A stretch of DNA of 64,000 nt from Geobacter sp. UBA698 (GCA_002298925.1 DBMM01000028.1:3713-67712), one strand, 5' to 3'. Shown: positions 1,838 to 18,596, counted from the first letter of the stretch. Translations and numbers: made by a program. The notes: generated by a model from the letters alone, not told the origin.

Positions 1838-1841
1838 CGTC

Positions 1842-2507
1842 ATGGCCCACACCCTTGCAGCCCAGATAAACAGCTTGCTGGCAGCCCTGATTCTGCTGTC
1901 CGCCTTTGCCTTGCTGGCCCAGCGCAAGATCATGGGGTTGGTCCATATTTTTGCCTGGCAGGGTTTCTTTCTGGCGCTCAGTACCGCCGTGATCGGTTTC
2001 GCCAGCGGTGAACACCACCTCTACATCTCCTCGCTCCTGACGCTCGGCATGAAGGTTTTTCTGCTCCCCTACATCCTCTACAGCCTGGTACACAAGCTGA
2101 AGATACACCGCGATATCGAGGCGGTCGTCAATATTCCCACCACCATGCTGCTCGGGATAGTGCTGGTGGTCTTCAGCTACCATTTGACCGCACCGATCCG
2201 GGAACTCTCCAACCTGATGACCCGCTCTACCCTGGCGGTAGCGCTGGCCACAGTCATGCTGGGGCTGTTGATGATGGTCACCCGCCGCCATGCCGTGACG
2301 CAGATTCTGGGGTTTCTGGCCATGGAGAACGGCCTGTTCTTTGCCGCCACCAGCGCCACCTACGGCATGCCGATGGTGGTGGAGTTGGGGGTGGCGCTCG
2401 ACCTGTTGATTGCGGCCTTTATCTTCGGCATCTTCTTTTTCCATATCAACACCACCTTTGACAGCCTGGATGTGGATCAGATGGCAAAGCTCAAGGAAAC
2501 GGATTAG
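1842..2507 (+). CDS. HyfE-like (NuoK-related) membrane subunit (cluster 1)
   Basis: 221-aa hydrophobic protein. The segment LGFLAMENGLFF..PMVVELGVALDLL matches the paralog at 14204-14845 and the hydrogenase-4 component E family. 4-nt gap to the upstream gene. Confidence 0.8.
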   Translation: MAHTLAAQINSLLAALILLSAFALLAQRKIMGLVHIFAWQGFFLALSTAVIGFASGEHHLYISSLLTLGMKVFLLPYILYSLVHKLKIHRDIEAVVNIPTTMLLGIVLVVFSYHLTAPIRELSNLMTRSTLAVALATVMLGLLMMVTRRHAVTQILGFLAMENGLFFAATSATYGMPMVVELGVALDLLIAAFIFGIFFFHINTTFDSLDVDQMAKLKETD

Positions 2508-2510
2508 GCC

Positions 2511-3959
2511 ATGATTCTTCTCTCTCTCCTCGGCATATCGATCCTGGTGGCGCTGATCATGGCCTTTATCGGCGACTGGCGTTTTGCACCGGAGGTAAAT
2601 ATAGGCGGTTCCCTGCTGACCTTTATCGTGTCGCTGGTCCTGGCGCTGCAGGTCTACCACGAGGGGGGGAGCATTTCCGGCTCTACCTACTTCTTTGTCG
2701 ATTACCTGAATATCTCCCTGGTCGTACTGACCACCCTGGTATCCACCACGACCGCCGTCTTCAGCCGCCGCTACATGCGGGTCGAACGAGAACATGGCCG
2801 GGTCGGCCACTGGCGGATGCGTTTTTATCACGCCATGTTTCAGCTCTTCATCTTTGCCATGCTGATCGCCCTGGTGACCAATAATTTCGGCGTGCTCTGG
2901 ATCTCGATGGAGCTGGCGACGCTGGCGACCGTCCTGTTGGTGTCACTCTACCGGACCCCGACCGCAATCGAGGCGGCCTGGAAATATTTCATCCTCTGCG
3001 GTGTCGGGATTGCCCAGGCGCTCTTCGGCACGGTACTGCTCTACTTTGCCGCCGAGAGGGTACTGGGGGCCGGCGGCAATGCCCTGCTCTGGACAAACCT
3101 GAGCCGGGTCTGCGCCCAGCTGGATCCGACCGTCATGCGGCTGGCCTTTGTCTTTCTGATGGTCGGCTACGGCACCAAGGCCGGTCTGGTGCCGCTGCAC
3201 AACTGGCTTCCGGATGCGCACAGCGAGGGGCCGACCCCGGTTTCGGCCGTGCTCTCCGGTCTGCTGCTGAATATCGCCCTGTACGCCCTGATTCGCTGCA
3301 AGGCGCTGGTGGATGGTTCCCTCGGGAGCGGGTTTGCCGGCAACATCATGATGGGGTTCGGCCTCTTTTCCCTGCTGACGGCGGCCTTTTCCATGCTGCG
3401 CCAGAAGGATATCAAGCGCCTCTTTGCCTACTCCTCCATCGAACATATGGGAATCGCCACCTTTGCCTTTGGTCTGGGCGGGCCGATCGCCACCTTTGGA
3501 GGGGTGCTCCATATGATCGTCCATAGTCTGGCCAAATCTGCCACCTTTTTCAGCGTCGGCCATGCCGCCCAGATGCACGGGACCCAGGAAATGGCCCATA
3601 TCCGGGGCCTGATTCGGGGGAATCCGGCGGTCGGGTGGGGAATGTTTCTGGGGGTAATGGCGCTGGCCGGCATGCCCCCCTTCGGGATCTTTACCAGCGA
3701 ATTCCTGATCCTGACCGCCACCATGAAGGATGCGCCGTACCTCGCCCCGTTGCTGCTGCTGGGGCTGACGGTGGCTTTTGCCGCCCTGTTCCGCAAGGTA
3801 CAGCCGATGGTGGCGGGGTTGATCCCGTCAGGACAAAAACAGCTCTCAGCCGCCAATATCCCGGTGTTCCTGCATCTGGCGCTGGTGCTGATTCTCGGCA
3901 TTTACCTCCCCGGATTCCTGGCGAACTGGTTTCATCTGGCGGTGGAGATATTGAAGTGA
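2511..3959 (+). CDS. HyfF/NuoN/NuoM-like antiporter-type membrane subunit (cluster 1)
   Basis: 482 aa. Carries the PF00361-type core GTKAGLVPLHNWLPDAHSEGPTPVSAVLSG and KRLFAYSSIEHMG. Paralog at 14850-16286. Confidence 0.85.
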   Translation: MILLSLLGISILVALIMAFIGDWRFAPEVNIGGSLLTFIVSLVLALQVYHEGGSISGSTYFFVDYLNISLVVLTTLVSTTTAVFSRRYMRVEREHGRVGHWRMRFYHAMFQLFIFAMLIALVTNNFGVLWISMELATLATVLLVSLYRTPTAIEAAWKYFILCGVGIAQALFGTVLLYFAAERVLGAGGNALLWTNLSRVCAQLDPTVMRLAFVFLMVGYGTKAGLVPLHNWLPDAHSEGPTPVSAVLSGLLLNIALYALIRCKALVDGSLGSGFAGNIMMGFGLFSLLTAAFSMLRQKDIKRLFAYSSIEHMGIATFAFGLGGPIATFGGVLHMIVHSLAKSATFFSVGHAAQMHGTQEMAHIRGLIRGNPAVGWGMFLGVMALAGMPPFGIFTSEFLILTATMKDAPYLAPLLLLGLTVAFAALFRKVQPMVAGLIPSGQKQLSAANIPVFLHLALVLILGIYLPGFLANWFHLAVEILK

Positions 3960-3968
3960 ACGTAAAGG

Positions 3969-5555
3969 ATGGCCACTGTGAACTCGCTCCGCAATACAAT
4001 CATGACTCACTTCGGCACGACTGCCTCTCTCTGTCTGGGCACCTGTCCCTCCAGCGTCCCGCAGATACTGGTTCCGCGCGAGCAGTTTGAGGATGTCGGC
4101 TGGGTGATGAAGAAGGCCAGCGCACGGCTGGCGGCCGAATGGGGTGTCGATGAAACCCTGCTGGGTAGGCAGTATGCAGTGCTGGCCTGCTTTGCGCAGG
4201 ATGCCGAGTACCTGCTGGTGCGGTGCGATGTCCCGCTTGATGACCCGGCCTTTCCCAGCCTGTCAAAAAAACACCCCCCGGCCTTTCGCTTCGAGCGCCA
4301 GATTTTAAGCCTGCTGGGGTTGACTCCGACCGGTCATGTTCATTCCGACCTGCGCCCCTGGATCAAGCACGAGGATTGGCCGCCTGATGCCTGGCCGCTC
4401 AGAAAGTCCTTTGCCGCCGGTCAACAGATGTCCCGCGTGGAGGGAGAGTACAAGTGGGTCCGGGCTGAAGGGGAGGGGGTCTATGAGATTCCGGTCGGAC
4501 CGGTGCATGCCGGGATCATTGAGCCGGGGCATTTCCGTTTTCAGGCCATGGGCGAGGATATTCTCAATCTGGAGGAACGCTTGGGCTACACCCATAAAGG
4601 GATCGAGAAGCGCTTTGAACAGTTGTCCTGGAAAGACGGGGCACGGCTGGCCGGAAGGGTGTCGGGCGACTCGACCGTTGCTCACGCCCTGACCTACTGC
4701 CGGGCGGTTGAGGCGCTGGTCGAGGGGAATGTGCCTCCCAGGGCGGCCTGGCTGCGGGCGATCATGCTGGAGCGGGAACGGATTGCCAACCATCTTGGAG
4801 ATATCGGTGCCATTGCCAACGATGCCGCCTTTGCCTTCTTTTTTTACCAGTTCATGCTGCTGAAAGAGCATGTTTTACGCGGCAACAAGCGGCTGTTCGG
4901 TCACCGTTACCTGATGGACCGGATCGTGCCGGGCGGGGTTGCCGTTGATCTATCGGCTGATGGTCCCTCCTTGATCGAGGAGGAAATAATCAGCCTGCTG
5001 GCGGAGTTCGAACGGATTGTAAAGATCTACGACCTGAACGCGTCACTGGATGATCGTCTGCGCGGTACCGGGATCCTGCCGGCGGAAACGGCCCGCGAAC
5101 TCGGCACGGTCGGCTTCGTTGCCCGGGCCAGCGGCCAGCCGCTGGACTGCCGCCTGCAAGCGCCCTTTAGCCCCTATGACCGGTTTCCTCCCCGGATGAC
5201 CGTGCTCAACTCGTGCGACGTCCACGCCCGCGCCTGGGTGCGGATCGAAGAGATCCGCGACTCAATCCGCCTGATCCGCGAACTTCTGGCGACACTGCCG
5301 ACCGGAGAAACGTCGGCACCACTGAAGGATGTCCCGCCGGACCAAAGCGCGTTTGCCGTCGTGGAGGGGTGGCGTGGGGAGATCGTCTATTGGCTGCACT
5401 CCGGTCCAGAAGGGGAGATCAACCGCTGCGCGATCCGTGATCCGTCCAGCGTCAACTGGCTGGCGCTCGAACAGGCGATCCACGGCAACATCGTTCCCGA
5501 TTTTCCGCTCTGCAACAAGAGTTTTAACCAGTCCTATTCGGGACATGATTTGTAG
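3969..5555 (+). CDS. NuoC-NuoD fusion / HycE-HyfG-like 'large subunit' lacking the Ni-Fe ligand cysteines (Ehr-type, cluster 1)
   Basis: 528 aa with VGPVHAGIIEPGHFRF and LGYTHKGIEKRF. The position of the RxCGxCxxxH motif reads RVSGDSTVAH (nt 4656-4685). The C-terminus reads DFPLCNKSF instead of DPCxxC (nt 5499-5525). Confidence 0.85.
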   Translation: MATVNSLRNTIMTHFGTTASLCLGTCPSSVPQILVPREQFEDVGWVMKKASARLAAEWGVDETLLGRQYAVLACFAQDAEYLLVRCDVPLDDPAFPSLSKKHPPAFRFERQILSLLGLTPTGHVHSDLRPWIKHEDWPPDAWPLRKSFAAGQQMSRVEGEYKWVRAEGEGVYEIPVGPVHAGIIEPGHFRFQAMGEDILNLEERLGYTHKGIEKRFEQLSWKDGARLAGRVSGDSTVAHALTYCRAVEALVEGNVPPRAAWLRAIMLERERIANHLGDIGAIANDAAFAFFFYQFMLLKEHVLRGNKRLFGHRYLMDRIVPGGVAVDLSADGPSLIEEEIISLLAEFERIVKIYDLNASLDDRLRGTGILPAETARELGTVGFVARASGQPLDCRLQAPFSPYDRFPPRMTVLNSCDVHARAWVRIEEIRDSIRLIRELLATLPTGETSAPLKDVPPDQSAFAVVEGWRGEIVYWLHSGPEGEINRCAIRDPSSVNWLALEQAIHGNIVPDFPLCNKSFNQSYSGHDL

Positions 5556-5678
5556 GGGTGATTGCGAATACGGCATACGGGCAGATGATCAAAAGCAGCG
5601 TCCACAAGCGTCAGAGAGGCTGTTATCAACTTCTGACAGCGCCTACCTTCTTATCCGTGTGCCTATCTCTCAAGATGG

Positions 5679-5706
5679 TTGACAATATAATTATATGTCA
5701 TACAAT
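5679..5706 (+). promoter_or_regulatory. Candidate sigma-70 promoter for the inserted ATPase gene
   Basis: TTGACA (5679-5684), a 16-nt spacer, then TACAAT (5701-5706), in a locally AT-rich stretch. Followed by the inverted repeat GTTACCAT (5708-5715) / ATGGTAAC (5733-5740). Confidence 0.45.
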
Positions 5707-5751
5707 GGTTACCATCATGTAGTAATCATAGTATGGTAACAAAGATTGGGC

Positions 5752-6900
5752 ATGGCAAACCCCTTTTACATAAAGCAGTTACCGCTTGACGCTCCCTTTT
5801 GCAACCGACAGAAAGAGATTGCTGAACTGTGCCGATTGGCTGAATCAAAGAATGATGTTGTCATTCATTCACCCAGGCGTTTCGGTAAAACCTCTCTAGT
5901 CCGCAGAGTGCAGAAGGAACTGGCAGATCGGGGAGCGCTCACAATTTATGCCGACTTTTTCGGAGTTGGTTCAATAGATGATGTTGCGGCCCGAATGGCG
6001 GAAGCGGTCTTTCGTGTGACCCATAAGAAAGAGCCTCTGTGGAAAAGCGCGCTCAAATTTCTGACGACATTTCGTCCGGTGCTCCGTCCTGATGCTGATG
6101 GTGGAGTAGAATTGACCGTTGAGTCCTCATCTGCGGGCAGGACCGGCTTGCCGCTCCTCAATGAAACCATGGAGTCACTGCGGCAATTTATCGACAACAC
6201 AGGCGCATTGGTTCATATCGCGCTGGATGAATTCCAGGAAATAGTGGTTCTGCCGGATGCAGTGAAAATTGAAGCCGCTTTGCGGACTCATATTCAACAA
6301 TATAAGGCATCGCATTTTTTTGTCGGTAGTCGCCGCAGGCTTTTGCTCGGGATGTTTAACGAGCGTCAGAGGCCGTTTTTCCAAAGCGCATTCGATTATC
6401 CACTTAAGTCGCTGCCTCGGGAAGAGTTGGCGGAATTCCTGTCAAAGCAGTTTACCGATAGCGGCATTATCTGCTCAAAAGAGATGGCAATCCATCTGGC
6501 GGAACTCGTCGATTGCTATCCCTACTATGCCCAGAAATTTGCCCATCATGTCTATGACCTGGCCGGTTCCGAAGTTACCTGGGCTGAAATAAAAATGGCG
6601 ATGAGAAGTCTGATCTTTTCCGAAGGGACAGCGTTCGAATACGCCATTCAAGGTTTGGCGCCACAGCAGCGTCTATTGCTTCGTGCCATTGCCAGGGAAC
6701 CGGCAAAACAGATCATGGCGACAAAATTCATGCGCACGCACAATCTCGGATCGGTCAACGCCGTACGGAATTCGCTCAAACAGCTGGAACTGCTGGACTA
6801 CATTGAAAAAGACTCTGATAACGTCTGGCATGTTATTGACCCGGTTTTTACATGGTGGTTGACGGGGAGAGTCAGCGAGGAAGCGATGGACGGTATGTGA
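5752..6900 (+). CDS. AAA-type ATP-binding protein ('archaeal ATPase'/ATPase_2-like with a C-terminal winged-helix-like region)
   Basis: Walker A SPRRFGKTSL and Walker B-like HIALDEFQE. Overall look of orphan PF01637-type ATPases. Visibly lower GC than the flanking genes. TTG at 5746 is an alternative start. Confidence 0.7.
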   Translation: MANPFYIKQLPLDAPFCNRQKEIAELCRLAESKNDVVIHSPRRFGKTSLVRRVQKELADRGALTIYADFFGVGSIDDVAARMAEAVFRVTHKKEPLWKSALKFLTTFRPVLRPDADGGVELTVESSSAGRTGLPLLNETMESLRQFIDNTGALVHIALDEFQEIVVLPDAVKIEAALRTHIQQYKASHFFVGSRRRLLLGMFNERQRPFFQSAFDYPLKSLPREELAEFLSKQFTDSGIICSKEMAIHLAELVDCYPYYAQKFAHHVYDLAGSEVTWAEIKMAMRSLIFSEGTAFEYAIQGLAPQQRLLLRAIAREPAKQIMATKFMRTHNLGSVNAVRNSLKQLELLDYIEKDSDNVWHVIDPVFTWWLTGRVSEEAMDGM

Positions 6901-7096
6901 CGGAAAAAGGATTACTGCGACAAGGTGGAAAAGCGGATAAAAGTCACACCCCCTCCCCGCTGCTGGAGCTTGAGGAAAACGACGCGAAGGGGTTGGAGAA
7001 GGCGGGGGAGTGAGGCTTGATGATGGGAAAACAGGGGAGTGTCCCGCTTTATTCCCTCTTTATTCCCCATGGATATGTTAGGAGGGAATCTGACCT

Positions 7097-7615
7097 ATGC
7101 TGAGAATACTGCACCAGATATTTCGAACCGGGGTGGTGACCGAGCCGTTGCCGGAACAGGTGGAAGCGGAGCTGGCCCACGTGGGCGGCCGGCTCGAAGA
7201 GGCTATCAGGCGGCGCTTCCACCGCAGCCTCGTGATCCGCGAGGTGGATGCCGGCTCGTGCAACGGCTGCGAGCTGGAGATCATCGCCATGAACAACCCG
7301 ATCTACAACTGTGAACGTTATGGCATCCAGTTTACGGCGTCGCCCCGCTTTGCCGACTTGCTGCTCGTCACCGGGCCGGTATCGATCAATATGGAGATTG
7401 CCCTCAAACGCACCTACGACGCCACTCCCACCCCCAAACTGGTCGTAGCGGTTGGTGATTGTGGCTGCCATGGCGGGATCTTCGGCGAAAGCTATGCCTC
7501 ACTCGGGAGTGTAAGTAACGTCATACCGGTTGATGCCAGCATTCCCGGCTGTCCGCCGACACCGTTCGACCTGCTGAATGGCATCCTCCGACTGATTGAC
7601 GGGCATCAGCCTTGA
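7097..7615 (+). CDS. NuoB/HycG/HyfI-like 'small subunit' with [4Fe-4S] ligands (cluster 1)
   Basis: 172 aa. Cys motifs GSCNGCELE, GDCGCHGG and PGCPPTP are typical of the NuoB/hydrogenase small-subunit N2-type cluster. RBS AGGAGGG lies about 10 nt upstream. Confidence 0.85.
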   Translation: MLRILHQIFRTGVVTEPLPEQVEAELAHVGGRLEEAIRRRFHRSLVIREVDAGSCNGCELEIIAMNNPIYNCERYGIQFTASPRFADLLLVTGPVSINMEIALKRTYDATPTPKLVVAVGDCGCHGGIFGESYASLGSVSNVIPVDASIPGCPPTPFDLLNGILRLIDGHQP

Positions 7616-7647: not shown

Positions 7648-9654
7648 TTACTTTGAACCGACGATTATCAGAAGAATCAAGGTGAGTAAGGTGTACAGGA
7701 TGTAGAGGTGAAGTTGACCGTGCTGTAGTCTTCGTATGGGCAGGAATTTCTCATAGATGCGGGCGAGGAGGGGGAGATAGATCCTTTCAAGGACGGCTTC
7801 GGGCACATGGCTTTCAAAATGGGGTGTGGCAGGGAATGAACCGATGATGTGCGGTGCGTGACGCTCGGGTCGCAGAACACCCGCAAAGAGTTTTACCAGC
7901 ATGGCGGCAAAGGATGATGCACTGTATTGCATCTTGCTGGTCGGAGCAAGATAGCCGCATCCCCAGGTGGCGGATGTTGTGACGGCCGAGCGGTGAAGAC
8001 GACGGCGATACAACAACCAACTCAGCAGAGAGAGCATGAGAAGAGTAACTGCCAGGATTGTTATCCACCCTAGAGGCGCTACAGTACCTAATGTCGGTAC
8101 GTCAGCCGATGGGGGCAACCAGCTGGTAACTGCCGATTCGAGTAACGGTGCAACTGCTACAGGGAAACAGCCGATAACAAGGCAGACGAGTGACAGAATC
8201 ATCATGGGCAGCAGCATTGTCCACTTTGCCTCATGGATGGATGTCGGGAGAGGCGAGCGAGGGACTCCGAGAAAGACAATACCGACAACCTTGACGAAAC
8301 AAGCGACCGCCAGACCGCCGATCAGGGCCAGGGCCGGAGCGGCGAGGGCGGTTCCGATGGCTCCTGCACCACTGCCGGAAATAGTTCCGTTGAAGAATCC
8401 CAAGTAGATCAGGAATTCACTGACAAAACCGTTGAGTGGCGGCAGTCCGCAAATCGCCACGGCGCCGATAATGAACGATACGGTGGTCCAGGGCATGGGA
8501 CGAAGCAGTCCTCCCATGCGATCGATCTCCCGGGTTGCTGCCGAATGGATGGCAGAACCGGCGCCAAGAAAAAGAAGCGCCTTGAAGGTGGCATGGTTCA
8601 GCACGTGCAGGAGCGCGCCGGCCAATCCCAGCAGAATAAGGATTGATGAGCCGGTAGCCGCACCAATCAATGCCGTGCCGATCCCCATGGTGATAATACC
8701 GATGTTCTCTATACTGTGATAGGCCAACAGCCGCTTGAGGTCATGCTGACCCAGGGCAAAGAGCACTCCGACGATCCCCGACACCATGCCGAGGACCATC
8801 ATGACTATGCCCCACCAGAGCGGTATCCCCGTAAAAAACGATAAGGTGCGCACCAGACCGTAGATGCCGATCTTGAGGATGACACCGGACATGATGGCGG
8901 ATACGTGACTGGGGGCATTGGCGTGAGCAGACGGAAGCCAGATGTGAAGCGGCATGAGCCCGGCCTTGAAGCCGAACCCGAACAGGGCAACCAGAAATAT
9001 AACGGTGGCGAGCGGCATCGTTGCGGTCAGCGCGCCGGCATCAGGGAATATGAAGCTGCCGGAGATGTTCTTCAACAATGCGAACAGGGCAAACAGGGCC
9101 AGAGTTCCCGTATGGGTGCAGATCATGTAGAGAGTACCGGCGTCACGAACGTCGGGCATGTGGTCTTCTGTGGTGAGAACGAAATAGGCGGCAAGCGCCA
9201 TTATCTCCCAGGCCAGCAGAAACAGGCCGGCCGAGCGCGACATGATGACGAAGAGCATGGATGACACCAGCAGTCCGAAAAAAAAAGTCAATTTTCGGAC
9301 TGTGCGGGGATTGTTCGGGGCAGGCCAGTAATCCAGGGCATAGATGCTGCAACAGGCAGACACGATCAGTATCGGCAGGGCAAAGAAGGCGGTGAGCGGG
9401 TCTAATCCGCATTCAACCGGGCCGAAAGGGAACGGCCAGGCCAGCTGATAGGTTACGTTTCGACGATGGAGCAGCGTCATGACGGCACCGACAAGCCCTC
9501 CCGCAGCCGCGACAAGCATTGTCAGTGTCGCGATGCGCTGGCCAAGGGTCGGGTTCAGAAAGCGCACCAGGAGTGGGGCACCTGAAAGAGCAGACAATAG
9601 TGCCGCTCCTATGAGGAGCATGGCAGGCAGGTTTGCCGTCAGGTCAACGGTCAT
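7648..9654 (-). CDS. Orphan HyfB/HycC/NuoL-like antiporter-type membrane subunit
   Basis: 668 aa with GFKAGLMPLHIWLPSAHANAPSHVSAIMSG, KRLLAYHSIENIG and a WGCGY..KMQYSASSF tail. Closely resembles 11201-13246. Its start overlaps the stop of the upstream EIIA gene (ATGA at 9651-9654). Confidence 0.85.
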   Translation of the reverse strand: MTVDLTANLPAMLLIGAALLSALSGAPLLVRFLNPTLGQRIATLTMLVAAAGGLVGAVMTLLHRRNVTYQLAWPFPFGPVECGLDPLTAFFALPILIVSACCSIYALDYWPAPNNPRTVRKLTFFFGLLVSSMLFVIMSRSAGLFLLAWEIMALAAYFVLTTEDHMPDVRDAGTLYMICTHTGTLALFALFALLKNISGSFIFPDAGALTATMPLATVIFLVALFGFGFKAGLMPLHIWLPSAHANAPSHVSAIMSGVILKIGIYGLVRTLSFFTGIPLWWGIVMMVLGMVSGIVGVLFALGQHDLKRLLAYHSIENIGIITMGIGTALIGAATGSSILILLGLAGALLHVLNHATFKALLFLGAGSAIHSAATREIDRMGGLLRPMPWTTVSFIIGAVAICGLPPLNGFVSEFLIYLGFFNGTISGSGAGAIGTALAAPALALIGGLAVACFVKVVGIVFLGVPRSPLPTSIHEAKWTMLLPMMILSLVCLVIGCFPVAVAPLLESAVTSWLPPSADVPTLGTVAPLGWITILAVTLLMLSLLSWLLYRRRLHRSAVTTSATWGCGYLAPTSKMQYSASSFAAMLVKLFAGVLRPERHAPHIIGSFPATPHFESHVPEAVLERIYLPLLARIYEKFLPIRRLQHGQLHLYILYTLLTLILLIIVGSK

Positions 9655-10337
9655 GAGACGCCTTTGCCGATATCATTTTCAATTTCCAGAATGGCAGTCA
9701 TGATCGCCTCGGAGTTGCATTGCTTGCCGAGAATGTCACGCAAGCGTTGATCACGCAGACAGTAAGCCAGTTTTGAGAGCAGATGCAGATGCATCCTGAT
9801 GGTCGGCGAGATGATAGTGAACAGTATCTGTACCGGCTTGCCGTCTAGCGCCCCGAAGTCAACCGGCTCCGAGAGGAAGCAGAGGGCGATCTTCGGAACG
9901 GGCAACTGCACCAGGATCGGATTGCGCACATGTGGAATGGCGATACCATCGCCGACTGCAGTTGTTCCCATGGCTTCACGTGCCAGGAGCACCTGCAGGA
10001 TGAATTCGGGATCGATCTCCGGCGGCAGGTCCAGGATCGCCACGGTATTTCGCAGTACCGTTTCCTTGTCGTCACCAGGAAAACCACAATGGATGCCTCC
10101 GGCATGCAACGCCTGGCTCAAGGTCGGCAAGGGACAATTATCCGCATCAGGCATCTTGTACAGGGCCGGATTAACCTTTATTCCGCGCTCCGTTGCCCAT
10201 TCCAACAGGTCCACCGGGTTGATCCGGTAGTCTCCGTGGATAGACTCTGCTGGCAGATTGTCTTTTTTAATCCAGCGCACAACGGTTTTTTCATCAACAT
10301 TCAGAGCCAGTGCGGCCTCGGACGGTTCAAGCAGCAT
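9651..10337 (-). CDS. DNA-binding (excisionase/MerR-type HTH) protein fused to a PTS EIIA type-2 (PtsN-like) domain
   Basis: N-terminal LNVDEKTVVRWIKKDNLPA HTH. C-terminal EIIA-2 domain with the phospho-His motif GDGIAIPHVRNP. Confidence 0.8.
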   Translation of the reverse strand: MLLEPSEAALALNVDEKTVVRWIKKDNLPAESIHGDYRINPVDLLEWATERGIKVNPALYKMPDADNCPLPTLSQALHAGGIHCGFPGDDKETVLRNTVAILDLPPEIDPEFILQVLLAREAMGTTAVGDGIAIPHVRNPILVQLPVPKIALCFLSEPVDFGALDGKPVQILFTIISPTIRMHLHLLSKLAYCLRDQRLRDILGKQCNSEAIMTAILEIENDIGKGVS

Positions 10338-11200: not shown

Positions 11201-13246
11201 ATGCCGACCTGCAATCATATCTTACCTCGATATGAGCGAAAGGGTAGGTGTGAGGCATTCGTGTTTTTTTCCGTTGATCCGACAATATGCCTTCTGGCCG
11301 CAGCAACACTCATGGCGTTCTCAGGAGTACCAGGTCTTGTGATGAACCGTCCTGTCTGGGGGCAGCGGATTGCCGCTGTTTTCGTTGTTGCGGCATCCAT
11401 TGTCGGTGAGTTCGCCGTCATTTCTCTCCTTGGCGGCTCCCGGGGAGCTACCTTCCAGATTGACTGGCCACTGCCGTTCGGGCAGGCTCTTATGTCCGTC
11501 GATCTCCTCTCAACGATCTTCCTCCTGCCTCTCTTCCTGGTTTGCGGATGTGTCTCGGTATATTCAATCGCCTACTGGCCGGCCAGGGAACAGACCAGCG
11601 CCGGAAAACTTACGCTGTTTCTCGGGTTCTTTGCCGCAGCGATGGTCATGGTGGTCTTGGCCCGCCACGGCGTATTGTTTCTCATAGCCTGGGAGGTCAT
11701 GGCCCTGTCGGCCTATTTCCTGCTGACGGCGGAGCAGCAGAGTTCCGAGGTGCAGCGAGTCGGGACGATCTATCTCATTGCCACCCACACCGGCACCATG
11801 GCGCTGTTTGCAATGTTTTCGCTACTGCGCGGTGCAATCGGCACGTTCCAGTTTCCCGCATCACATTCTCTATCCCAGGCGGTGCCGGTTGCCTCGGTCA
11901 TTATCATAACTGCCCTGATCGGCTTTGGCGGCAAGGCCGGTCTTATGCCTTTGCACTTCTGGCTCCCCGGGGCCCATGCCAACGCCCCCAGCCATGTTTC
12001 AGCCATGATGTCCGGTTTGATGCTGAAGATGGGGGTCTATGGCATTCTGCGGACCATGTCGTTTTTTGACGCTCTGCCTGTCTGGCTGGGGTGGCTTATC
12101 CTCCTTTTGGGCACCTGGTCGGCGATAAACGGCATTGCCCTGGCAGCCGGCCAGCGTGACCTGAAACGACTCCTGGCCTGCAGCAGTATCGAGAATGTCG
12201 GTATTATCTTTATCGGCATCGGGCTGGCCGTTGTCGGCCTGCAGCTGCACGCTCCCTACCTCATCGTATGTGGTCTCTTTGGAGCCTTTATCCATATCAT
12301 CAATCATGGTCTGTTCAAATCGCTCCTCTTTCTGGGGAGCGGGGTGCTGATCCATGCTGCCGGAACCCGTGAAATAGACCGCATGGGCGGCCTGGCCCGG
12401 CGCATGCCGATCACGTCGCCGCTCTTCCTGATCGGCTCCCTTGCCATCTGCGGGCTGCCGCCGCTCAATGGTTTTGTGGGCGAACTGTTTCTCTACGTCG
12501 GGGCCATTACCGATGGCATCATCGCACCTTTGCCGCTGGCGGCCCTAGTGGCACCAGTGTTGGCGTTGGTCGGCGGATTGGCTGTCATTACCTTCGTCAA
12601 AATCTATGGGATCATCTTTCTTGGCGCTCCACGCTCTGTTGCAGCCGCTCACGGCCATGAAGCAACCAGGGCGATGACCGCTCCGATGGTTCTGCTGGCG
12701 CTCGGCTGTCTGGTTGCAGGCCTGGCGCCTGTGCTGCTGGTGCGATTGGTTACACCGGCGGTCGCTTTTTATGGTAACCTGGCCGCACCTGAAATTGCCC
12801 TGGTTACCGATCAGGTACCTCTTGTGCCACTCACGTTTGCCAATTGCCTGCTCATCATTCTTGTTCTGGTGATCGGAGCTGCATACCTGTTGCGGCTGCG
12901 CAGGTTGCCCCGCTCCCTGGGGGCCACCTGGGGATGCGGCTATCCTGAACCAACAGCCAGAATGCAATATACCGGCACATCGTTCAGTGAGATGGTGGTG
13001 AATCTGTTAGGGGCAATCGTTGCCCCCAACCGCCGGAAGCCCATACTTGTTACAGCCATTCCTCCTGCTGACGCACGTTTTCACTACACGGTGACTGAAA
13101 CAGTGCTTGACCGGATTCTGACACCGCTCTTTCAAGGGGTCGGCCTGGCCTTTTCCTATCTCAGAAGGGTGCAGCATGGCCAGCTTCATATCTATGTGCT
13201 GTATATCTTTGCCACGCTGTGCGTTCTGATGGCCTGGACGCATTGA
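11201..13246 (+). CDS. HyfB/HycC/NuoL-like membrane subunit (cluster 2)
   Basis: GGKAGLMPLHFWLPGAHANAPSHVSAMMSG, KRLLACSSIENVG and a WGCGYPEPTARMQYTGTSF tail. The in-frame GTG at 11261, preceded by GAGG, aligns better with the paralog N-terminus and may be the true start. Confidence 0.85.
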   Translation: MPTCNHILPRYERKGRCEAFVFFSVDPTICLLAAATLMAFSGVPGLVMNRPVWGQRIAAVFVVAASIVGEFAVISLLGGSRGATFQIDWPLPFGQALMSVDLLSTIFLLPLFLVCGCVSVYSIAYWPAREQTSAGKLTLFLGFFAAAMVMVVLARHGVLFLIAWEVMALSAYFLLTAEQQSSEVQRVGTIYLIATHTGTMALFAMFSLLRGAIGTFQFPASHSLSQAVPVASVIIITALIGFGGKAGLMPLHFWLPGAHANAPSHVSAMMSGLMLKMGVYGILRTMSFFDALPVWLGWLILLLGTWSAINGIALAAGQRDLKRLLACSSIENVGIIFIGIGLAVVGLQLHAPYLIVCGLFGAFIHIINHGLFKSLLFLGSGVLIHAAGTREIDRMGGLARRMPITSPLFLIGSLAICGLPPLNGFVGELFLYVGAITDGIIAPLPLAALVAPVLALVGGLAVITFVKIYGIIFLGAPRSVAAAHGHEATRAMTAPMVLLALGCLVAGLAPVLLVRLVTPAVAFYGNLAAPEIALVTDQVPLVPLTFANCLLIILVLVIGAAYLLRLRRLPRSLGATWGCGYPEPTARMQYTGTSFSEMVVNLLGAIVAPNRRKPILVTAIPPADARFHYTVTETVLDRILTPLFQGVGLAFSYLRRVQHGQLHIYVLYIFATLCVLMAWTH

Positions 13247-13290: not shown

Positions 13291-14199
13291 ATGACTGACA
13301 TCATCATCCATTGTGCAGTGGCGCTGCTCTTCCCACCCCTTCTGCTGGGGGTAATCGGCAAGACCAAGGCGGCATTTGCCGGACGGGTCGGGGCGCCATA
13401 TTTCCAACCCTATTACGACCTGATCAAACTCTTCCGCAAAGGGTCGGTCTTCAGCGAGACCACCACCTGGGTCTTTCGAGCCGGTCCCGTGGTGACGCTG
13501 TCGGCAACGCTTATCGCCTGCCTGCTGATACCGCTGGGGCGCCATGCAGCGCCCATTTCTTTCAGCGGTGATCTGATTCTGTTTGCGTACCTGTTCGGGT
13601 TGTCACGCTTCTTCACTACCATCGCCGCCCTTGATACCGGCTCAAGCTTTGAAGGTATGGGCGCGGCCCGCGAGGTGACTTTTTCGTGCCTTGCTGAACC
13701 GACTCTATTTTTTACCCTGATCACGCTGGCGCGGATGAGTAAGTCCATCACCCTTTCGACCATTCTTACCCATCCCACACCCGCGACCTGGTTTGCTGCC
13801 GGAGCCAGCATGTTGCTGCTGGTAGGGGCACTCTTCATCATCCTCTTGGCGGAAAACTGCCGCATCCCCTTTGATGACCCCAACACACACCTGGAATTGA
13901 CCATGATCCACGAGGTAATGGTTCTGGATCACAGCGGACCCGCCTTTGGGATCATTCTCTATGGTGCAGCCTTGAAACTCTTTGTTCTCGGGGCGGTTTT
14001 CGTCAATGTCGCCCTGCCCATCGCCACTGGAAACGCTCTGGCGGACTGGGCAATCTTCATTGTCGCCATACTTGCCCTGGCGGTGACAATCGGCATTGTT
14101 GAGTCGGTCATGGCCAGATTGAGATTGGTGCGTATCCCGCAACTCCTGGTCGGGGCCACCATCCTGTCAGCCTTTGCCATGATGCTGGTTTTGAGGTAA
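13291..14199 (+). CDS. HyfC/HycD/NuoH-like integral membrane subunit (cluster 2)
   Basis: 302 aa. PFDDPNTHLELTMIHEVMVLDHSG parallels the paralog at 893-1837. Confidence 0.85.
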   Translation: MTDIIIHCAVALLFPPLLLGVIGKTKAAFAGRVGAPYFQPYYDLIKLFRKGSVFSETTTWVFRAGPVVTLSATLIACLLIPLGRHAAPISFSGDLILFAYLFGLSRFFTTIAALDTGSSFEGMGAAREVTFSCLAEPTLFFTLITLARMSKSITLSTILTHPTPATWFAAGASMLLLVGALFIILLAENCRIPFDDPNTHLELTMIHEVMVLDHSGPAFGIILYGAALKLFVLGAVFVNVALPIATGNALADWAIFIVAILALAVTIGIVESVMARLRLVRIPQLLVGATILSAFAMMLVLR

Positions 14200-14203
14200 C
14201 CCT

Positions 14204-14845
14204 ATGAGTCTATTAGCTGATCAACTGCTGGTACTGGTGATGCTGATCAATCTGGTCATGCTCGGGACGAGCCGACTGATCTTTTCCATCCGTGCCGTCG
14301 CAGTCCAAGGGGTCATACTCGGTATTTTGCCCGGATTGATTCACCCTTTTTCCTTTCATCTGGCCGGCATAACTGCCGGTATCATCCTGGCCAAAGGGAT
14401 TGTCATCCCGTATTTTATCAGTAATGCCGTCCGCAAGGCCCAGATCAGACGCGAAGTGGAGCCATTCATCGGCTATGTGCCGACCCTGCTTCTCGGCGCC
14501 GTATTCACAGCACTTTCATTCGCTTTTGCCGAAAAACTGCCGCTCGCGCCCGAACACAAGGACCTTCTGTTCGTTCCGGCCTCCATCGCTACCCTGTTGA
14601 CCGGCTTTTTGCTCCTCACAACACGGCGCAAGGCTATTTCCCAGGTTATTGGTTATCTGGTGATGGAAAACGGGATTTTCGTGTTCGGCCTGTTGTTGAC
14701 CGAGGCCATGCCGGTCATGGTGGAGGCTGGTGCACTGCTCGATCTTCTGGTGGGGATATTTGTCATGGGAATTGTCATCAACCATATCAGCCGGGAATTT
14801 TCATCCATCGATACATCCCGCCTGCAAACCCTCAAGGAGGAGTAG
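14204..14845 (+). CDS. HyfE-like (NuoK-related) membrane subunit (cluster 2)
   Basis: 213 aa. IGYLVMENGIFVFG..MPVMVEAGALLDLL parallels 1842-2507. Confidence 0.8.
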   Translation: MSLLADQLLVLVMLINLVMLGTSRLIFSIRAVAVQGVILGILPGLIHPFSFHLAGITAGIILAKGIVIPYFISNAVRKAQIRREVEPFIGYVPTLLLGAVFTALSFAFAEKLPLAPEHKDLLFVPASIATLLTGFLLLTTRRKAISQVIGYLVMENGIFVFGLLLTEAMPVMVEAGALLDLLVGIFVMGIVINHISREFSSIDTSRLQTLKEE

Positions 14846-14849
14846 CTGC

Positions 14850-16286
14850 ATGTTATATGCCCTTGTACTGCTGCCCCTGCTCGGAGCGTTATGCGCCTGG
14901 ATCGTACCGGACAACCGCTTGCGTCCCCTTGTTCTGCCGCTGATCGCAACAATCCATATCTGTCTGGCGGCCTTCCTGGTGGGAAATGCGCCGCCGCCAT
15001 CCCCCGGAGGCTGGATCTGGCTCGACCCGCTGGGGAAGGTCGTGCTTCTGTGCATCAGTCTTCTGTTCGCAGTCTGCGCCTTCTATGCGGTCGGCTATCT
15101 GTCCTACCGTCAGGAACGTTCCAACCGGGTTCTCTGCATGGGTCTGCTGGTCTGCCTGTCGGCCATGGGGATGGTGACCATGACCCAGCATCTGGGACTT
15201 CTCTGGGTCGCTCTGGAAACGACCACCGTCTCGATGGCACCGCTCATCTACTTCAATCACAACGCCCGTTCCATCGAAGCGACCTGGAAGTACCTCCTGC
15301 TCTGCTCCGTTGGGATCGGCCTGGCTTTGCTCGGGTTGCTGTTTCTGGCCTATTCAACCTACGTAGCGCATCATGATGCCACCCTGCTGCTCGGGCCGCT
15401 CATGTCCATAGCCCGTGAACTGAATCCGGCGTGGCTGCATGCGGCTGCGATTTTCCTCCTGGTTGGCTACGGAACCAAGATGGGACTGGCTCCATTGCAT
15501 GCCTGGAAACCTGATGCCTACGGCGAAGCGCCGGGACTGGTAGGCGCGTTGCTTGCCGGTGGATTGGTCAACTGCGCCTTTCTGGCGATCCTGCGGGTGT
15601 ACCAGATCTGTCTGGCATCCGGTACCGAGATCCGTTTTTTTCAACAGGCCCTGCTCGGTATGGGTCTGGTTTCCATGGCCTTTGCTGCCGTTTTCATGGC
15701 CCGCCAGGCCGACTTCAAAAGGATGCTGGCATATTCGAGCGTTGAACATGTGGGGATTCTCGCTATCGGTCTTGGACTCGGCAAAGGAGCGCTGTACGGG
15801 GCGCTCTTTCACCTGCTCAATAACGGACTGACCAAGGGGGTACTCTTCCTTTCATCCGGCAACATTCACCGCTCATATTCAAATAAGACGACCGTCGTGG
15901 TCAAGGGGGCCCTGACGCGTCTCCCCTGGTCGGGAGGGCTGTTTCTGGCCGGCTTCATAGCCATCACCGGATCACCTCCATTCTCGCCGTTCATCAGCGA
16001 GTATACCATCGTCAGCAGCGCCTTTATCGACGGGCGTTTTCTGGTGGGGAGTTTGTTTCTGCTCTTTCTGGTGGTTGTCTTCATCGGCATGGCCCTTACG
16101 GTACTGCCGATGGTCATGGGCGCCCCGCCGGCGGAAGTTGAAGCGAGCGACTACGAGGACCGTCTGTTGACGGTGGGGCCGCCGCTCTTCATGATGATGG
16201 TAATCCTGGTGCTGGGAGTTTGGCCGCCGGAATTCCTGGTTGCGTTACTCAAGGACGGCGCCGCCATGCTGGGGGTGCAACCGTGA
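14850..16286 (+). CDS. HyfF/NuoN/NuoM-like antiporter-type membrane subunit (cluster 2)
   Basis: ATG at 14850 follows RBS AAGGAGG (14834-14840). The N-terminus MLYALVLLPLLGA is membrane-like. Core motifs are GTKMGLAPLHAWKPDAYGEAPGLVGALLAG and KRMLAYSSVEHVG. The longer ORF starting at 14730 overlaps the upstream gene and was rejected. Confidence 0.85.
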   Translation: MLYALVLLPLLGALCAWIVPDNRLRPLVLPLIATIHICLAAFLVGNAPPPSPGGWIWLDPLGKVVLLCISLLFAVCAFYAVGYLSYRQERSNRVLCMGLLVCLSAMGMVTMTQHLGLLWVALETTTVSMAPLIYFNHNARSIEATWKYLLLCSVGIGLALLGLLFLAYSTYVAHHDATLLLGPLMSIARELNPAWLHAAAIFLLVGYGTKMGLAPLHAWKPDAYGEAPGLVGALLAGGLVNCAFLAILRVYQICLASGTEIRFFQQALLGMGLVSMAFAAVFMARQADFKRMLAYSSVEHVGILAIGLGLGKGALYGALFHLLNNGLTKGVLFLSSGNIHRSYSNKTTVVVKGALTRLPWSGGLFLAGFIAITGSPPFSPFISEYTIVSSAFIDGRFLVGSLFLLFLVVVFIGMALTVLPMVMGAPPAEVEASDYEDRLLTVGPPLFMMMVILVLGVWPPEFLVALLKDGAAMLGVQP

Positions 16287-17803
16287 ATGGCTCCCTGCGC
16301 ACCGTATACAACGGTTCCTCCGTTCCTATGGCGGACATACCAGCAGTCGGTTCCAGCCAGTTTTTACAGAACATTCTCGACACCGTTGACCAGGGCTGGC
16401 GCATTGTTTCTTACTTCGGGATTCCAGGCCCCGCAGGCGTTTCGCTGGTCTGCCTGCTTGCCGATAAAGGCGAGGGACAACTTGCCGTGACCCGTGCGGA
16501 TGTAACGGCTGACCACATCCCCTCGATCTCTTCCCTCTGCCCTCAGGCACAACTTTTTGAGCGCGAGATTGCCGAACAGTGCGGCCTGATCTTTGATGAC
16601 CATCCCTGGTTCAAGCCGGTGCGTTTCCACCATCCATTCGTCCCCGGACGCGATGCTTGGAACCGGTCTTCGGACGAGCCTATCCGCGCCGGGGTCATGA
16701 ACTACTTTCAGGTGGCCGGCGATGAGGTGCATGAAGTTGCCGTCGGTCCGGTACACGCCGGGATTATCGAACCGGGACATTTCCGTTTCCAGTGTCACGG
16801 TGAAGAGGTCTTTCATCTGGAAATTTCACTCGGGTATCAGCACCGGGGGATCGAAGCAGCACTATTCGGCGGGCCTCACCCTCGCACGCTGCAGGTGATG
16901 GAAACCGCCGCCGGAGATACCACCATTGGTCATAGTCAGGCCTACTGCATGGTCATGGAAACTTTGGCCGGGATCAAGGTGCCGCCGCGGGCAGAGGTCC
17001 TACGCGGCATTGCCCTTGAGCTGGAACGGCTGGCAAATCATACCGGCGACCTGGGGGCAATTGCAGGCGATGTCGGTTATCTTCCCACTGCGTCCTTCTG
17101 TGGCCGCATCAGGGGGGATTTCCTCAATATGACCGCTGTCCTCTGCGGCAGCCGCTTTGGTCGCGGACTCCTCACCCCCGGCGGTACGATCTTCGATCTC
17201 ACGACCGCCCAGTGTGAAGACCTGCTCAAACACCTGGCAGAGGCGCGAAGTGATCTGACTGATGCCGTTGAACTTCTCTGGAGCTCACCTTCGGTCATGG
17301 GACGTCTGGAGGAAACGGGTGCGCTGACACATGAGCAGGGGCTTGCACTCGGATTGGTAGGTCCAGCTGCCCGTGCCTGCGGAATCAAGCGGGATGTGCG
17401 CAATGATTATCCGTTCGGAATCTATCGCATGACCCATTTGCCGGTTGCCACTGCATTCCACGGAGACGTCTGCGCACGAACCATGATCAGATGGCAGGAA
17501 GCCCAGAAATCCATGGATTTCATCGAGGAACAGCTACGGCAGATCCCCGCTGGAGGACATCGTGTCACTGCATTACCCGGCAAAGGTCTGCGCCTGGCCG
17601 TAGCCCTGACAGAGGGGTGGCGCGGCGAGATATGTCACGTGGCGGTTACCGATGAGGCGGGGCAATTTTCCCGCTACAAGATTGTCGATCCCTCGTTTCA
17701 TAACTGGCCGGGACTCGCCATGGCGCTCCGGGGGCAGCAAATATCCGATTTTCCGCTCTGCAACAAGAGCTTCAACCTATCCTATTGCGGGTTTGATTTA
17801 TAG
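16283..17803 (+). CDS. NuoC-NuoD fusion / HycE-like 'large subunit' lacking the Ni-Fe ligand cysteines (Ehr-type, cluster 2)
   Basis: GTG start at 16283 overlaps the upstream stop (GTGA). Carries VGPVHAGIIEPGHFRF and LGYQHRGIEAAL. The L1 position reads ETAAGDTTIGH (16901-16933). The C-terminus reads DFPLCNKSFNLSYCGFDL (from 17747). Confidence 0.85.
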   Translation: MNGSLRTVYNGSSVPMADIPAVGSSQFLQNILDTVDQGWRIVSYFGIPGPAGVSLVCLLADKGEGQLAVTRADVTADHIPSISSLCPQAQLFEREIAEQCGLIFDDHPWFKPVRFHHPFVPGRDAWNRSSDEPIRAGVMNYFQVAGDEVHEVAVGPVHAGIIEPGHFRFQCHGEEVFHLEISLGYQHRGIEAALFGGPHPRTLQVMETAAGDTTIGHSQAYCMVMETLAGIKVPPRAEVLRGIALELERLANHTGDLGAIAGDVGYLPTASFCGRIRGDFLNMTAVLCGSRFGRGLLTPGGTIFDLTTAQCEDLLKHLAEARSDLTDAVELLWSSPSVMGRLEETGALTHEQGLALGLVGPAARACGIKRDVRNDYPFGIYRMTHLPVATAFHGDVCARTMIRWQEAQKSMDFIEEQLRQIPAGGHRVTALPGKGLRLAVALTEGWRGEICHVAVTDEAGQFSRYKIVDPSFHNWPGLAMALRGQQISDFPLCNKSFNLSYCGFDL

Positions 17804-17858: not shown

Positions 17859-18596
17859 ATGATCAGAGCAATCGTTTCCCGCATCAAACAGGGGCATCGT
17901 ACCATGCCCTATCCCGCAGCACCATTGCAGATGCCGGAACGGTTTCGAGGCTACCCTGTTGCAGCATCGCTTGCAGATTCGGCCGATCGATCACCTGAAT
18001 GTCCCTATGGCGCCTTTTCCGCTGCGGAAGGTGGATGCCTTGATATGGGGAAATGCCTCTTCTGCGCCGAGTGTCCGGCAGGAAACATAGAATTCACCAC
18101 GGATCATCGACTTGCAGCCACAAAAAGAGAACATCTTCTGGTAACGCCGGGAGCTCCACGGCAGTTTGCACAGGCGCTTTCTAACGATCTGCTACGCATA
18201 TTGGGTCGCTCGCTCAAATTCCGTGAGGTCAGTGCAGGCGGTTGTAATGCTTGTGAGGCAGATACCAACGTGCTGTCAACCATAGGCTGGGATCTGGGAC
18301 GGTTTGGCATTCAATTTGTGGCGTCGCCACGCCACGCTGATGGGCTCTGGGTAACCGGTCCAGTCACCAATAACATGACCAAGGCTCTGCTCACTACATA
18401 TGATGCGATTCCTGAACCGAAGATCGTTGTTGCCTGTGGCGCCTGTGCCATCAACGGCGGACCGTACATTGATTCGCCCCAAGTTTGCAACGGCGCAGAT
18501 GGTCTCATTCCGGTAGATCTCTACATCCCCGGCTGTCCGCCACACCCCGGGACCATACTCGACGGTCTTTTACGAATTATTGATAAAATCAGATGA
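17859..18596 (+). CDS. NuoB/HycG-like 'small subunit' with an N-terminal single-cluster ferredoxin-like extension (cluster 2)
   Basis: ATG at 17859. The N-terminal part has ECPYGAF...GKCLFCAECPAG (CxxCxxCP plus a distal CP). The C-terminal part has GGCNACEAD, ACGACAINGG and PGCPPHP (NuoB-type). Confidence 0.8.
   Translation: MIRAIVSRIKQGHRTMPYPAAPLQMPERFRGYPVAASLADSADRSPECPYGAFSAAEGGCLDMGKCLFCAECPAGNIEFTTDHRLAATKREHLLVTPGAPRQFAQALSNDLLRILGRSLKFREVSAGGCNACEADTNVLSTIGWDLGRFGIQFVASPRHADGLWVTGPVTNNMTKALLTTYDAIPEPKIVVACGACAINGGPYIDSPQVCNGADGLIPVDLYIPGCPPHPGTILDGLLRIIDKIR

Follow-up and report, generated by a model that had tools for sequence, protein, structure and literature searches.

The Ehr (Ech/energy-converting-hydrogenase-related) complex is said to have been described in Geobacter sulfurreducens by Coppi in 2005 and by Marreiros et al. 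in 2013, and to our knowledge no function has been assigned to it since it was named in 2005. In evolutionary terms, it sits between the energy-converting hydrogenases and complex I. The G. sulfurreducens complex is encoded by GSU0739-0745 (PMC7894505, PMC4758237, PMC13194489), and all of its subunits were more abundant in formate-grown cells (PMC7894505). Ehr lacks the ligands of the nickel-iron (NiFe) site and is close to group 4f, and it has been left without an assigned function (PMC10284858, PMC6349859). Here, we analyzed a 64,000-nucleotide (nt) stretch of DNA from Geobacter sp. UBA698 (GCA_002298925.1 DBMM01000028.1:3713-67712), referred to as the window, with positions counted from its first nucleotide. 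The gene at positions 16283 to 17803 on the plus strand specifies the large subunit (EhrL) of an Ehr membrane complex, within a canonical Geobacter-type cluster (cluster 2), and a paralog lies in a second, partial Ehr cluster (cluster 1) that spans positions 63 to 7615. All four NiFe-ligating cysteines of EhrL have been replaced, and comparison with its relatives shows that the former active-site pocket has been remodeled under selection and has not decayed.

The ehrL open reading frame (ORF) is intact, consisting of 506 codons and a stop codon at 17801 to 17803, and its product, which fuses a NuoC-like to a NuoD-like domain (Pfam PF00329 and PF00346), was a 100% match to a 506-amino-acid database protein (P0001). 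A first-pass annotation of the window had placed a NuoCD-like protein at these positions, with the sequence ETAAGDTTIGH at 16901 to 16933, and translation bore out both the coordinates and the reading frame, as it did for the C-terminal tail, DFPLCNKSFNLSYCGFDL, which begins at 17747 and ends at 17800 (17803 with the stop codon). It had also claimed that the NiFe ligands are lost, and this, too, was correct. When ligand positions were set by HMMER alignment to Escherichia coli HycE (PDB 7z0s_E) and by our own alignment with HycE, MbhL, and Nqo4, residues 210 and 213 fell on the N-terminal cysteines and residues 500 and 503 fell on the C-terminal ones. These four positions read A/T/S/G in the cluster 2 protein and S/S/S/G in its cluster 1 paralog. 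The N-terminal (L1) motif RxCGxCxxxH, with its two cysteines, is absent from the cluster 2 protein, which has E-T-A-A210-G211-D212-T213-T-I-G-H217 (residues 207 to 217) in its place. The C-terminal (L2) motif [DEN][PL]CxxCxx[RH] is absent from it as well. The protein instead ends in N-L-S-Y-C-G-F-D-L, with Ser500 at the position of Cys3, Gly503 at that of Cys4, Leu506 in place of the terminal arginine, and its sole cysteine in this stretch (residue 502) at a nonligand position.

Among solved structures, the chains most similar to EhrL were HycE (7z0s_E), MbhL (6cfw_L), and Nqo4 (2fug_4). An AlphaFold model built from a 40-sequence alignment had a mean predicted local distance difference test (pLDDT) score of 89.5 and a predicted template modeling (pTM) score of 0.92, and in a Foldseek search with this model, the top match was again 7z0s_E, with a template modeling (TM) score of 0.83, while E. 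coli NuoCD scored ~0.8. We also considered a sulfane reductase of the Mbx/Mbs type as the closest relative and rejected it because 6u8y_L was a far weaker match than HycE, MbhL, or Nqo4. No NCBIfam model for NuoD or for a hydrogenase passed its curated cutoff with the cluster 2 protein; the NuoD models fell well short (NF004739, 185 bits against a cutoff of 360; TIGR01962, 149 against 459). The nearest database names for both paralogs were from Geobacter and Desulfuromonadaceae, with named matches to cluster 2 EhrL in Geobacter grbiciae and Geobacter sp. AOG1 at 82 to 83% identity. The product names given to EhrL in the databases vary and include "NADH-quinone oxidoreductase subunit C," "Ni,Fe-hydrogenase III large subunit," "carbon monoxide-induced hydrogenase," and "formate hydrogenlyase subunit 5." The first two of these are both wrong for EhrL, and the tail motif offers a simple diagnostic.

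The cluster 1 paralog, encoded on the plus strand at 3969 to 5555 by a 528-codon ORF (annotated as 525 amino acids), keeps matching motifs, RVSGDSTVAH at 4656 to 4685 and the tail DFPLCNKSFNQSYSGHDL at 5499 to 5552, in a protein that is only 36 to 37% identical to the cluster 2 protein. These correspondences had raised the question of whether the two motifs are family signatures, and they proved to be so in every set of other genomes that we assembled. In the sets of 120 top-ranking homologs for each paralog, which reach down to about 65% identity, the tails are essentially invariant and both D212 and H217 are conserved in 100% of sequences. A profile search of 1.84 billion representatives of 50% clusters returned 1,955 proteins at E < 1e-30. 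We analyzed the best 150 of these, including 126 Ehr-type proteins, 17 proteins with all four cysteines, and 2 with three, and the complete ones almost all finish in DFP[LIV]xNKSF…D[LR]. D212, S500, and G503 are kept in 92 to 94% of the 126 Ehr-type representatives at a mean pairwise identity of only ~35 to 43%; the similarity is far above chance. At least 593 Ehr loci emerged when one genome from each GTDB species was scanned, so that genomes with an Ehr complex number about 600 or more at the species level and span many bacterial phyla. The best 80 of these come from ~17 phyla and include loci from Geobacterales, Planctomycetota, Verrucomicrobiota, Lentisphaerota, Acidobacteriota, Spirochaetota, Gemmatimonadota, Riflebacteria, Fibrobacterota, Omnitrophota, Chlamydiota, Cloacimonadota, Zixibacteria, Actinomycetota, Myxococcota, Desulfovibrionaceae, and Alphaproteobacteria. 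In these 80 loci, G211, D212, H217, D263, D469, N494-K495-S496-F497, S500, Y501, G503, and D505 are 100% conserved.

Conservation of this kind had been described in the first-pass annotation as conservation of replacement residues, a description that turned out to apply to about six positions, most of the motif being inherited scaffold. The 17 four-cysteine representatives, whose named members are annotated as hydrogenase large subunits or HyfG/HycE-like proteins and come from Desulfitobacterium hafniense, Desulfotomaculum, and a planctomycete, read ER[IV]CG[VA]C..SH and DFPL[IV]NKSF[EN]LCY[AS]CxDR (DFPLINKSFELCY[AS]CxDR). When every column with a conservation of 80% or more among the 126 Ehr-type representatives was set against these 17 relatives, only seven differed: D212 (V/A in the relatives), D263 (G), D469-P470 (S-A), S500 (C), G503 (C), and L506 (R). 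Common to both groups are G211, D489-F490-P491, N494-K495-S496-F497, L499, Y501, D505, and the whole β1-β2 loop, of which the segment VGPVHAGIIEPGHFRF (residues 154 to 169; 16742 to 16789) is the same in both window paralogs and in the cysteine-bearing relatives. H217 fell below the 80% threshold of the column table and is also histidine in most cysteine-bearing relatives. Since they are equally conserved in proteins that keep all four cysteines, G211, H217, DFPLxNKSF, L499, Y501, and D505 are inherited scaffold.

Two of the differing elements are shared with more distant relatives. Asp263 (codon at 17069 to 17071), which is glycine in the cysteine-bearing relatives, aligns with Asp139 of Thermus Nqo4 and with the aspartate of the MbhL motif GHDIGY. 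Asp469-Pro470 (in VDPSF; 17687 to 17692), which is Ser-Ala in the cysteine-bearing relatives, corresponds to APSF in Nqo4 and to EPTF in MbhL. Neither element is therefore an Ehr invention, and we discarded both as Ehr-specific novelties. On sequence comparison with all of the cysteine-bearing and solved relatives included here, only D212, S500, G503, and L506 are Ehr specific among the well-conserved columns. Counting the two variable ligand positions, the true replacements are Cys1 to Ser/Ala, a hydrophobic residue to Asp212, Cys2 to Ser/Thr, Cys3 to Ser500, Cys4 to Gly503, and the terminal arginine to leucine. Position 210 is Ser or Ala and occasionally Cys, and position 213 is Ser or Thr and sometimes Asn or Glu, so that both are variable but polar or small. 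Residue 212 is Asp in Ehr and nonacidic, mostly hydrophobic, in every cysteine-bearing or solved relative compared. This residue-level signature, which separates Asp212, Ser500, Gly503, and Leu506 from the inherited scaffold, was worked out in the present analysis, and together with the polar positions 210 and 213 it provides a short list of targets for mutagenesis in a genetically tractable Geobacter.

The terminal leucine is not strict: some Ehr-type proteins keep arginine, and one all-cysteine protein ends in leucine. That protein (P0273, of the "Ca. Wujingus" type) combines all four cysteines with Pro470 and a terminal leucine (…CYSCTDL), and four Ehr-type proteins (P0252, P0280, P0299, and P0345) end in arginine (…SYSGxDR). 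These mosaics would be informative for the order in which the substitutions arose. Cysteines have also been gained at two nonligand positions, Cys493 (17759 to 17761, in PLCNKS) and Cys502 (17786 to 17788, in SYCG), where the cysteine-bearing relatives have Ile/Val and Ser/Ala, respectively. Both are typical of the subfamily to which the cluster 2 protein belongs (subfamily A, below), and an obligatory Cys493-Cys502 thiol pair was ruled out by members of that subfamily with only one of the two.

Selection on ehrL was estimated from the ratio of nonsynonymous to synonymous substitution rates (dN/dS), which for the whole gene was 0.07 to 0.18 against seven orthologs. The codons of the invariant tail vary synonymously (GAT/GAC at 36:27, TTC/TTT at 34:29, and all six leucine codons for leucine). 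The replacements in EhrL are thus under strong purifying selection, and the pocket was remodeled rather than left to decay. The earlier suggestion of a new functional site rather than decay was thus right in rejecting decay, and a new site is plausible, mainly on account of Asp212.

With the motif columns excluded, the representatives sort into three groups. Subfamily A, which includes the cluster 2 gene, has …ISDFPLCNKSF..SYCG (in its tail form, …ISDFPLCNKSFNLSYCGxDL) together with [ST]xAGD[TS]; subfamily B, which includes the cluster 1 gene (…IVPDFPLCNKSFNQSYSGHDL), has …IVPDFPLxNKSF..SY[SA]G together with RxSGD[ST]; and the third group is that of the cysteine-bearing proteins. In a neighbor-joining tree calculated from the same columns (200 bootstraps, rooted with HycE, MbhL, and Nqo4), subfamily A was a clade in 200 of the 200 replicates, and the last common ancestor of the two window paralogs excluded the cysteine group in 112. 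The tree gives no firm order of the subfamily B lineages, the cysteine-bearing group, and the root. Mean identities are 0.35 between A and B, 0.38 between B and the cysteine-bearing group, and 0.39 within B, so that the cysteine-bearing relatives are as near to subfamily B as its members are to one another, and a search for group-diagnostic indels among the three groups found none. Synonymous sites between the window paralogs are saturated (proportion of synonymous differences, 0.71), and several contigs, as well as locus L004, carry both paralog types. These saturated sites, the solid support for clade A, and the contigs with both types make the paralogy ancient, and the two paralogs represent Ehr subfamilies that separated long ago.

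In complex I, Mbh, and formate hydrogenlyase, the β1-β2 loop joins the active site to the membrane arm, and in all three, this junction couples chemistry to ion translocation. EhrL is encoded alongside a NuoB-like small subunit (EhrS), a NuoH-like subunit, a HyfE-like subunit, and two antiporter-like subunits. We infer from homology the position of the pocket, the path of electrons to it, and its role in coupling. The reading that we favor, to which we give a probability of about 0.6, is that the cofactor-free EhrL pocket has been kept as the coupling chamber of an ion-translocating Ehr complex, in which, in most members, electrons from the small subunit pass to an acceptor other than H2 or to a protonatable group. 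The four NiFe cysteines would have been replaced early and the substitutions then held by purifying selection. The pocket would be lined by Asp212, Ser/Thr213, His217, Ser500, Tyr501, Asp505, Asp263, and the free C terminus and would sit where the [4Fe-4S] cluster of the small subunit, the β1-β2 loop, and the NuoH-like subunit meet. Electrons would most likely enter via the proximal [4Fe-4S] cluster of the small subunit in both window clusters, passing first, in cluster 2, through the N-terminal ferredoxin-like cluster of EhrS. They could end at a non-H2 acceptor or a protonatable group, with Asp212, His217, and Asp263 as candidate acid/base groups, and the resulting change of charge in the pocket may drive the antiporter-like subunits.

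Several observations weigh against this reading. The confidence of the EhrL model is low just at residues 156 to 161 (pLDDT of <50) and 503 to 506, so that the predicted proximity of D212, D263, D469, and the tail rests on homology, and the nearest relative in the PDB, HycE, is only 26% identical in the Foldseek structural alignment, no closer chain having been found in the sequence comparisons with solved structures. Packing alone could explain why Ser and Gly are conserved where Cys3 and Cys4 used to be. Ehr was monophyletic in only 39 of the 200 bootstrap replicates, which accommodates a single loss of the cysteines as well as several, as do the nearest neighbors and the residues at positions 263, 469, 470, and 506. 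Finally, 6 of the ~76 complete small subunits lack at least two, and up to all four, proximal-cluster cysteines, and the adjacent EhrL keeps all of its motifs. These six loci (L009, L027, L044, L056, L060, and L076) belong to Planctomycetota, Verrucomicrobiota, and Actinomycetota. Because the motifs persist in them, the role of the pocket does not strictly depend on the proximal cluster and, at least in these lineages, cannot rely on electrons from it, a strictly redox-catalytic role is disfavored, and a structural or nonredox ion-coupling role stays in play; they place a new constraint on any Ehr mechanism. These EhrS proteins read, for example, SGAEE, GAEA, and GWPP where CxxC, GxC, and GCPP are expected, and they keep the N-terminal CxxCxxCxxxCP.

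The same six lineages speak for the idea that the small or polar replacements simply keep the empty pocket folded, with Ser, Gly, and Asp212 (paired with a basic neighbor) bridging the N- and C-terminal segments in the way that the metal center formerly did, in an Ehr complex that works without chemistry at this site, for example as a redox-independent or only redox-regulated cation/proton transporter of the Mrp type. That most of the motif is inherited scaffold fits this idea, and so does the conservation at the head of the operon of a gene for a phosphotransferase system (PTS) EIIA-type regulatory domain, as EIIA(Ntr)-type proteins regulate ion transport. We nevertheless consider it possible but on balance unlikely, since all four cluster cysteines are intact in 69 of the ~76 complete small subunits, and an additional ferredoxin-like cluster is kept in most, a costly arrangement if no electrons are transferred, and since residue 212 is acidic almost throughout Ehr and nonacidic, mostly hydrophobic, in every cysteine-bearing or solved relative compared, which looks more like a functional group than like packing. 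Rather doubtful, too, is a reading in which an invariant Asp212, with His217, Asp263, and the free C terminus, would form a new coupling site that binds protons, cations, or small polar ligands and that could operate without the adjacent iron-sulfur cluster, as in the six lineages that lost it. If it were true, Ehr would resemble complex I as a machine but would no longer be triggered by redox chemistry at the counterpart of cluster N2. In a sharper form of this reading, subfamilies A and B would have lost the cysteines independently and converged on G-D-[ST] and S-Y-x-G, for which the tree leaves room. A site for quinone reduction like that of complex I, which would make Ehr a small ferredoxin:menaquinone oxidoreductase, gains some credit from the exact alignment of Asp263 with Asp139 of Nqo4 and of DPSF with the APSF of complex I, from the exchange of the terminal Arg for Leu, which lowers the basicity of the pocket, and from the presence of NuoH-like and antiporter-like subunits. 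It is improbable, however: every member has Gly211 in place of the quinone-ligating Tyr87; the β1-β2 loop, two residues longer, follows the HycE type, and the equivalent of Nqo4 His38 is ambiguous, falling on Pro164 with His166 nearby; and D263 and E/D-P are also found in a true hydrogenase, Mbh, and are not quinone specific. In addition, Ehr occurs in Riflemargulisbacteria in which no complete pathway of ubiquinone or menaquinone biosynthesis was identified (PMC6349859).

Two further explanations were considered. A recent paper describes the Ehr complex of G. sulfurreducens KN400 as the relic of a hydrogenase that has no function and evolves under relaxed selection (PMC13194489). The four NiFe ligands are indeed gone, and no function has been demonstrated (PMC10284858), but a decaying relic is hard to reconcile with a dN/dS of 0.07 to 0.18, with intact ORFs in an operon whose order is kept across ~17 phyla, with residues that are invariant at saturated synonymous divergence, or with the detection of all Ehr subunits, which were more common with formate than under hydrogen-containing conditions (PMC7894505). 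We regard it as extremely improbable, the selection data refuting the view of Ehr as dead genes at the level of the family. The other explanation, raised as an alternative in the first-pass annotation, is that the near-identical tails of the two paralogs result from recent local gene conversion. The identical tail stretch of 23 nt reported there is present and belongs to a full run of 25 nt (CC plus the 23 nt), the longest between the two large-subunit genes, the next longest being 11 nt. When codons were redrawn from the codon usage of the window on the fixed protein alignment, the longest run was 12.7 ± 3.5 nt, and a run of 25 nt or more arose in 0.8% of the simulations (P = 0.008), so that the observed run is longer than those in 99.2% of them. 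Moreover, no DNA match between the clusters is better than that of the 59-nt tail, at 83%. The simulation is nevertheless overly strict, because it ignores codon preference and the AGY codon that is fixed in the family for Ser496, and the same 23-mer, which is the commonest codon string for the invariant tail peptide, is also carried by 6 of 80 orthologs from other lineages (Pelobacter and Geobacter metagenome-assembled genomes, two Verrucomicrobia, a Gemmatimonadetes, and one unclassified bacterium). The identity also stops abruptly on both flanks, and in L004, a genome with both paralogs, the tails differ at 5 of the 23 nt. Other DNA repeats between the clusters are 22 to 115 nt long and at most ~91% identical, and the saturation of synonymous sites between the paralogs likewise weighs against conversion. 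Conversion does not explain why the amino acids are invariant across phyla and cannot account for motifs conserved in other genomes; a microconversion of 25 nt in this genome is unnecessary to explain the tails, and recent conversion is very improbable as their origin. We therefore rejected it as the cause of the shared conservation.

EhrL is the product of gene 5 of a six-gene operon, all on the plus strand, that encodes HyfB-like (11201 to 13246), NuoH/HyfC-like (13291 to 14199), HyfE-like (14204 to 14845), and antiporter-like membrane subunits, the large subunit, and the NuoB-like small subunit; this order is kept across phyla in 80 related loci. The gene for the antiporter-like subunit ends at 16286, overlapping the start of ehrL by 4 nt. 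Its ORF is listed from 14730, although a start at about 14842, abutting the HyfE-like gene, seems probable. EhrS of cluster 2 (17859 to 18596; 245 amino acids) has a NuoB-like domain with all four proximal [4Fe-4S] cysteines (GGCNAC, ACGAC, and PGCPP) and, at residues 47 to 73, an N-terminal remnant of a HycF/NuoI-type ferredoxin with the cysteines for one cluster only (ECP…CLFCAECP). The NuoB-like small subunit of cluster 1 (7097 to 7615, plus strand; 172 amino acids) keeps the four proximal-cluster cysteines and is without the ferredoxin-like N terminus. In cluster 1, a gene for a 384-residue ATPase of the ATPase_2/AAA_16 type (5746 to 6900, plus strand) separates the large-subunit gene from the small-subunit gene; in L004, the cluster 1-type large- and small-subunit genes appear side by side.

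Two genes on the minus strand lie between the clusters. One, at 9651 to 10337, encodes a fusion of an HTH_17 DNA-binding domain to a PTS EIIA-2 domain, and its position next to Ehr operons is conserved in many phyla. Most loci of Planctomycetota, Verrucomicrobiota, Spirochaetota, Acidobacteriota, and Actinomycetota begin with this gene, on the strand of the operon, whereas in Geobacterales it is divergent from the operon, an association that suggests PTS(Ntr)-type regulation of Ehr or a link to ion homeostasis. The other, at 7648 to 9654, overlaps the first by 4 nt and encodes an extra HyfB/NuoL-like membrane protein of 668 amino acids; the same arrangement is present in L001, L003, and L004. 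This gene is probably the ehrA-2 of Geobacter annotations (PMC13194489).

Set beside the systems described above, EhrL is more distant from the large subunits of the Pyrococcus furiosus Mbh and Mbs/Mbx complexes (6cfw_L and 6u8y_L), which belong to the same superfamily and have the same type of membrane arm. Mbh shares Asp at position 263 and has Glu-Pro at 469-470, but the family profile matched Mbh and Mbs with E values of only 5e-72 and 2e-47, against 2e-112 for HycE, both are without the DFPLxNKSF tail, and Mbh keeps its NiFe site. The NuoD/Nqo4 subunit of complex I (2fug_4; E. coli NuoCD) resembles EhrL in the absence of NiFe cysteines, in Asp139 at the position of Asp263, in the PSF motif, and in fold, with a TM score of 0.8. 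It differs in having Leu where Ehr has Asp212 and Tyr87 where Ehr has Gly211, and the Ehr β1-β2 loop is longer. E. coli HycE (7z0s_E) is the best solved relative by both sequence and fold and shares the fused NuoC-like N-terminal domain, but it has the NiFe cysteines (RVCGIC and DPCYSC), the tail DAPLIIGSLDPCYSCTDR, Phe at 263, and Ala-Ala at 469-470.

Closer still are the four-cysteine subunits from D. hafniense (WP_015945149.1), Desulfotomaculum sp., and "Ca. Wujingus," which, we infer from PMC10284858, correspond to HydDB group 4f. Outside the motifs, they are ~38% identical to subfamily B, and they end at the same position as EhrL, without a C-terminal extension, and share DFPLxNKSF, Y501, D505, G211, H217, and the β1-β2 loop. 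They differ from Ehr in keeping the cysteines and in having V/A at 212, mostly Gly at 263, and Ser-Ala at 469-470. The Ehr complex of G. sulfurreducens itself matches the window locus in its set of subunits (EhrA, -B, -C, -D, -L, and -S), in the loss of the NiFe cysteines, and in its genus-level neighborhood, with the extra ehrA-2-like gene upstream. Cluster 2 is thus in all essentials the G. sulfurreducens complex, to which the window adds a second cluster, of subfamily B.

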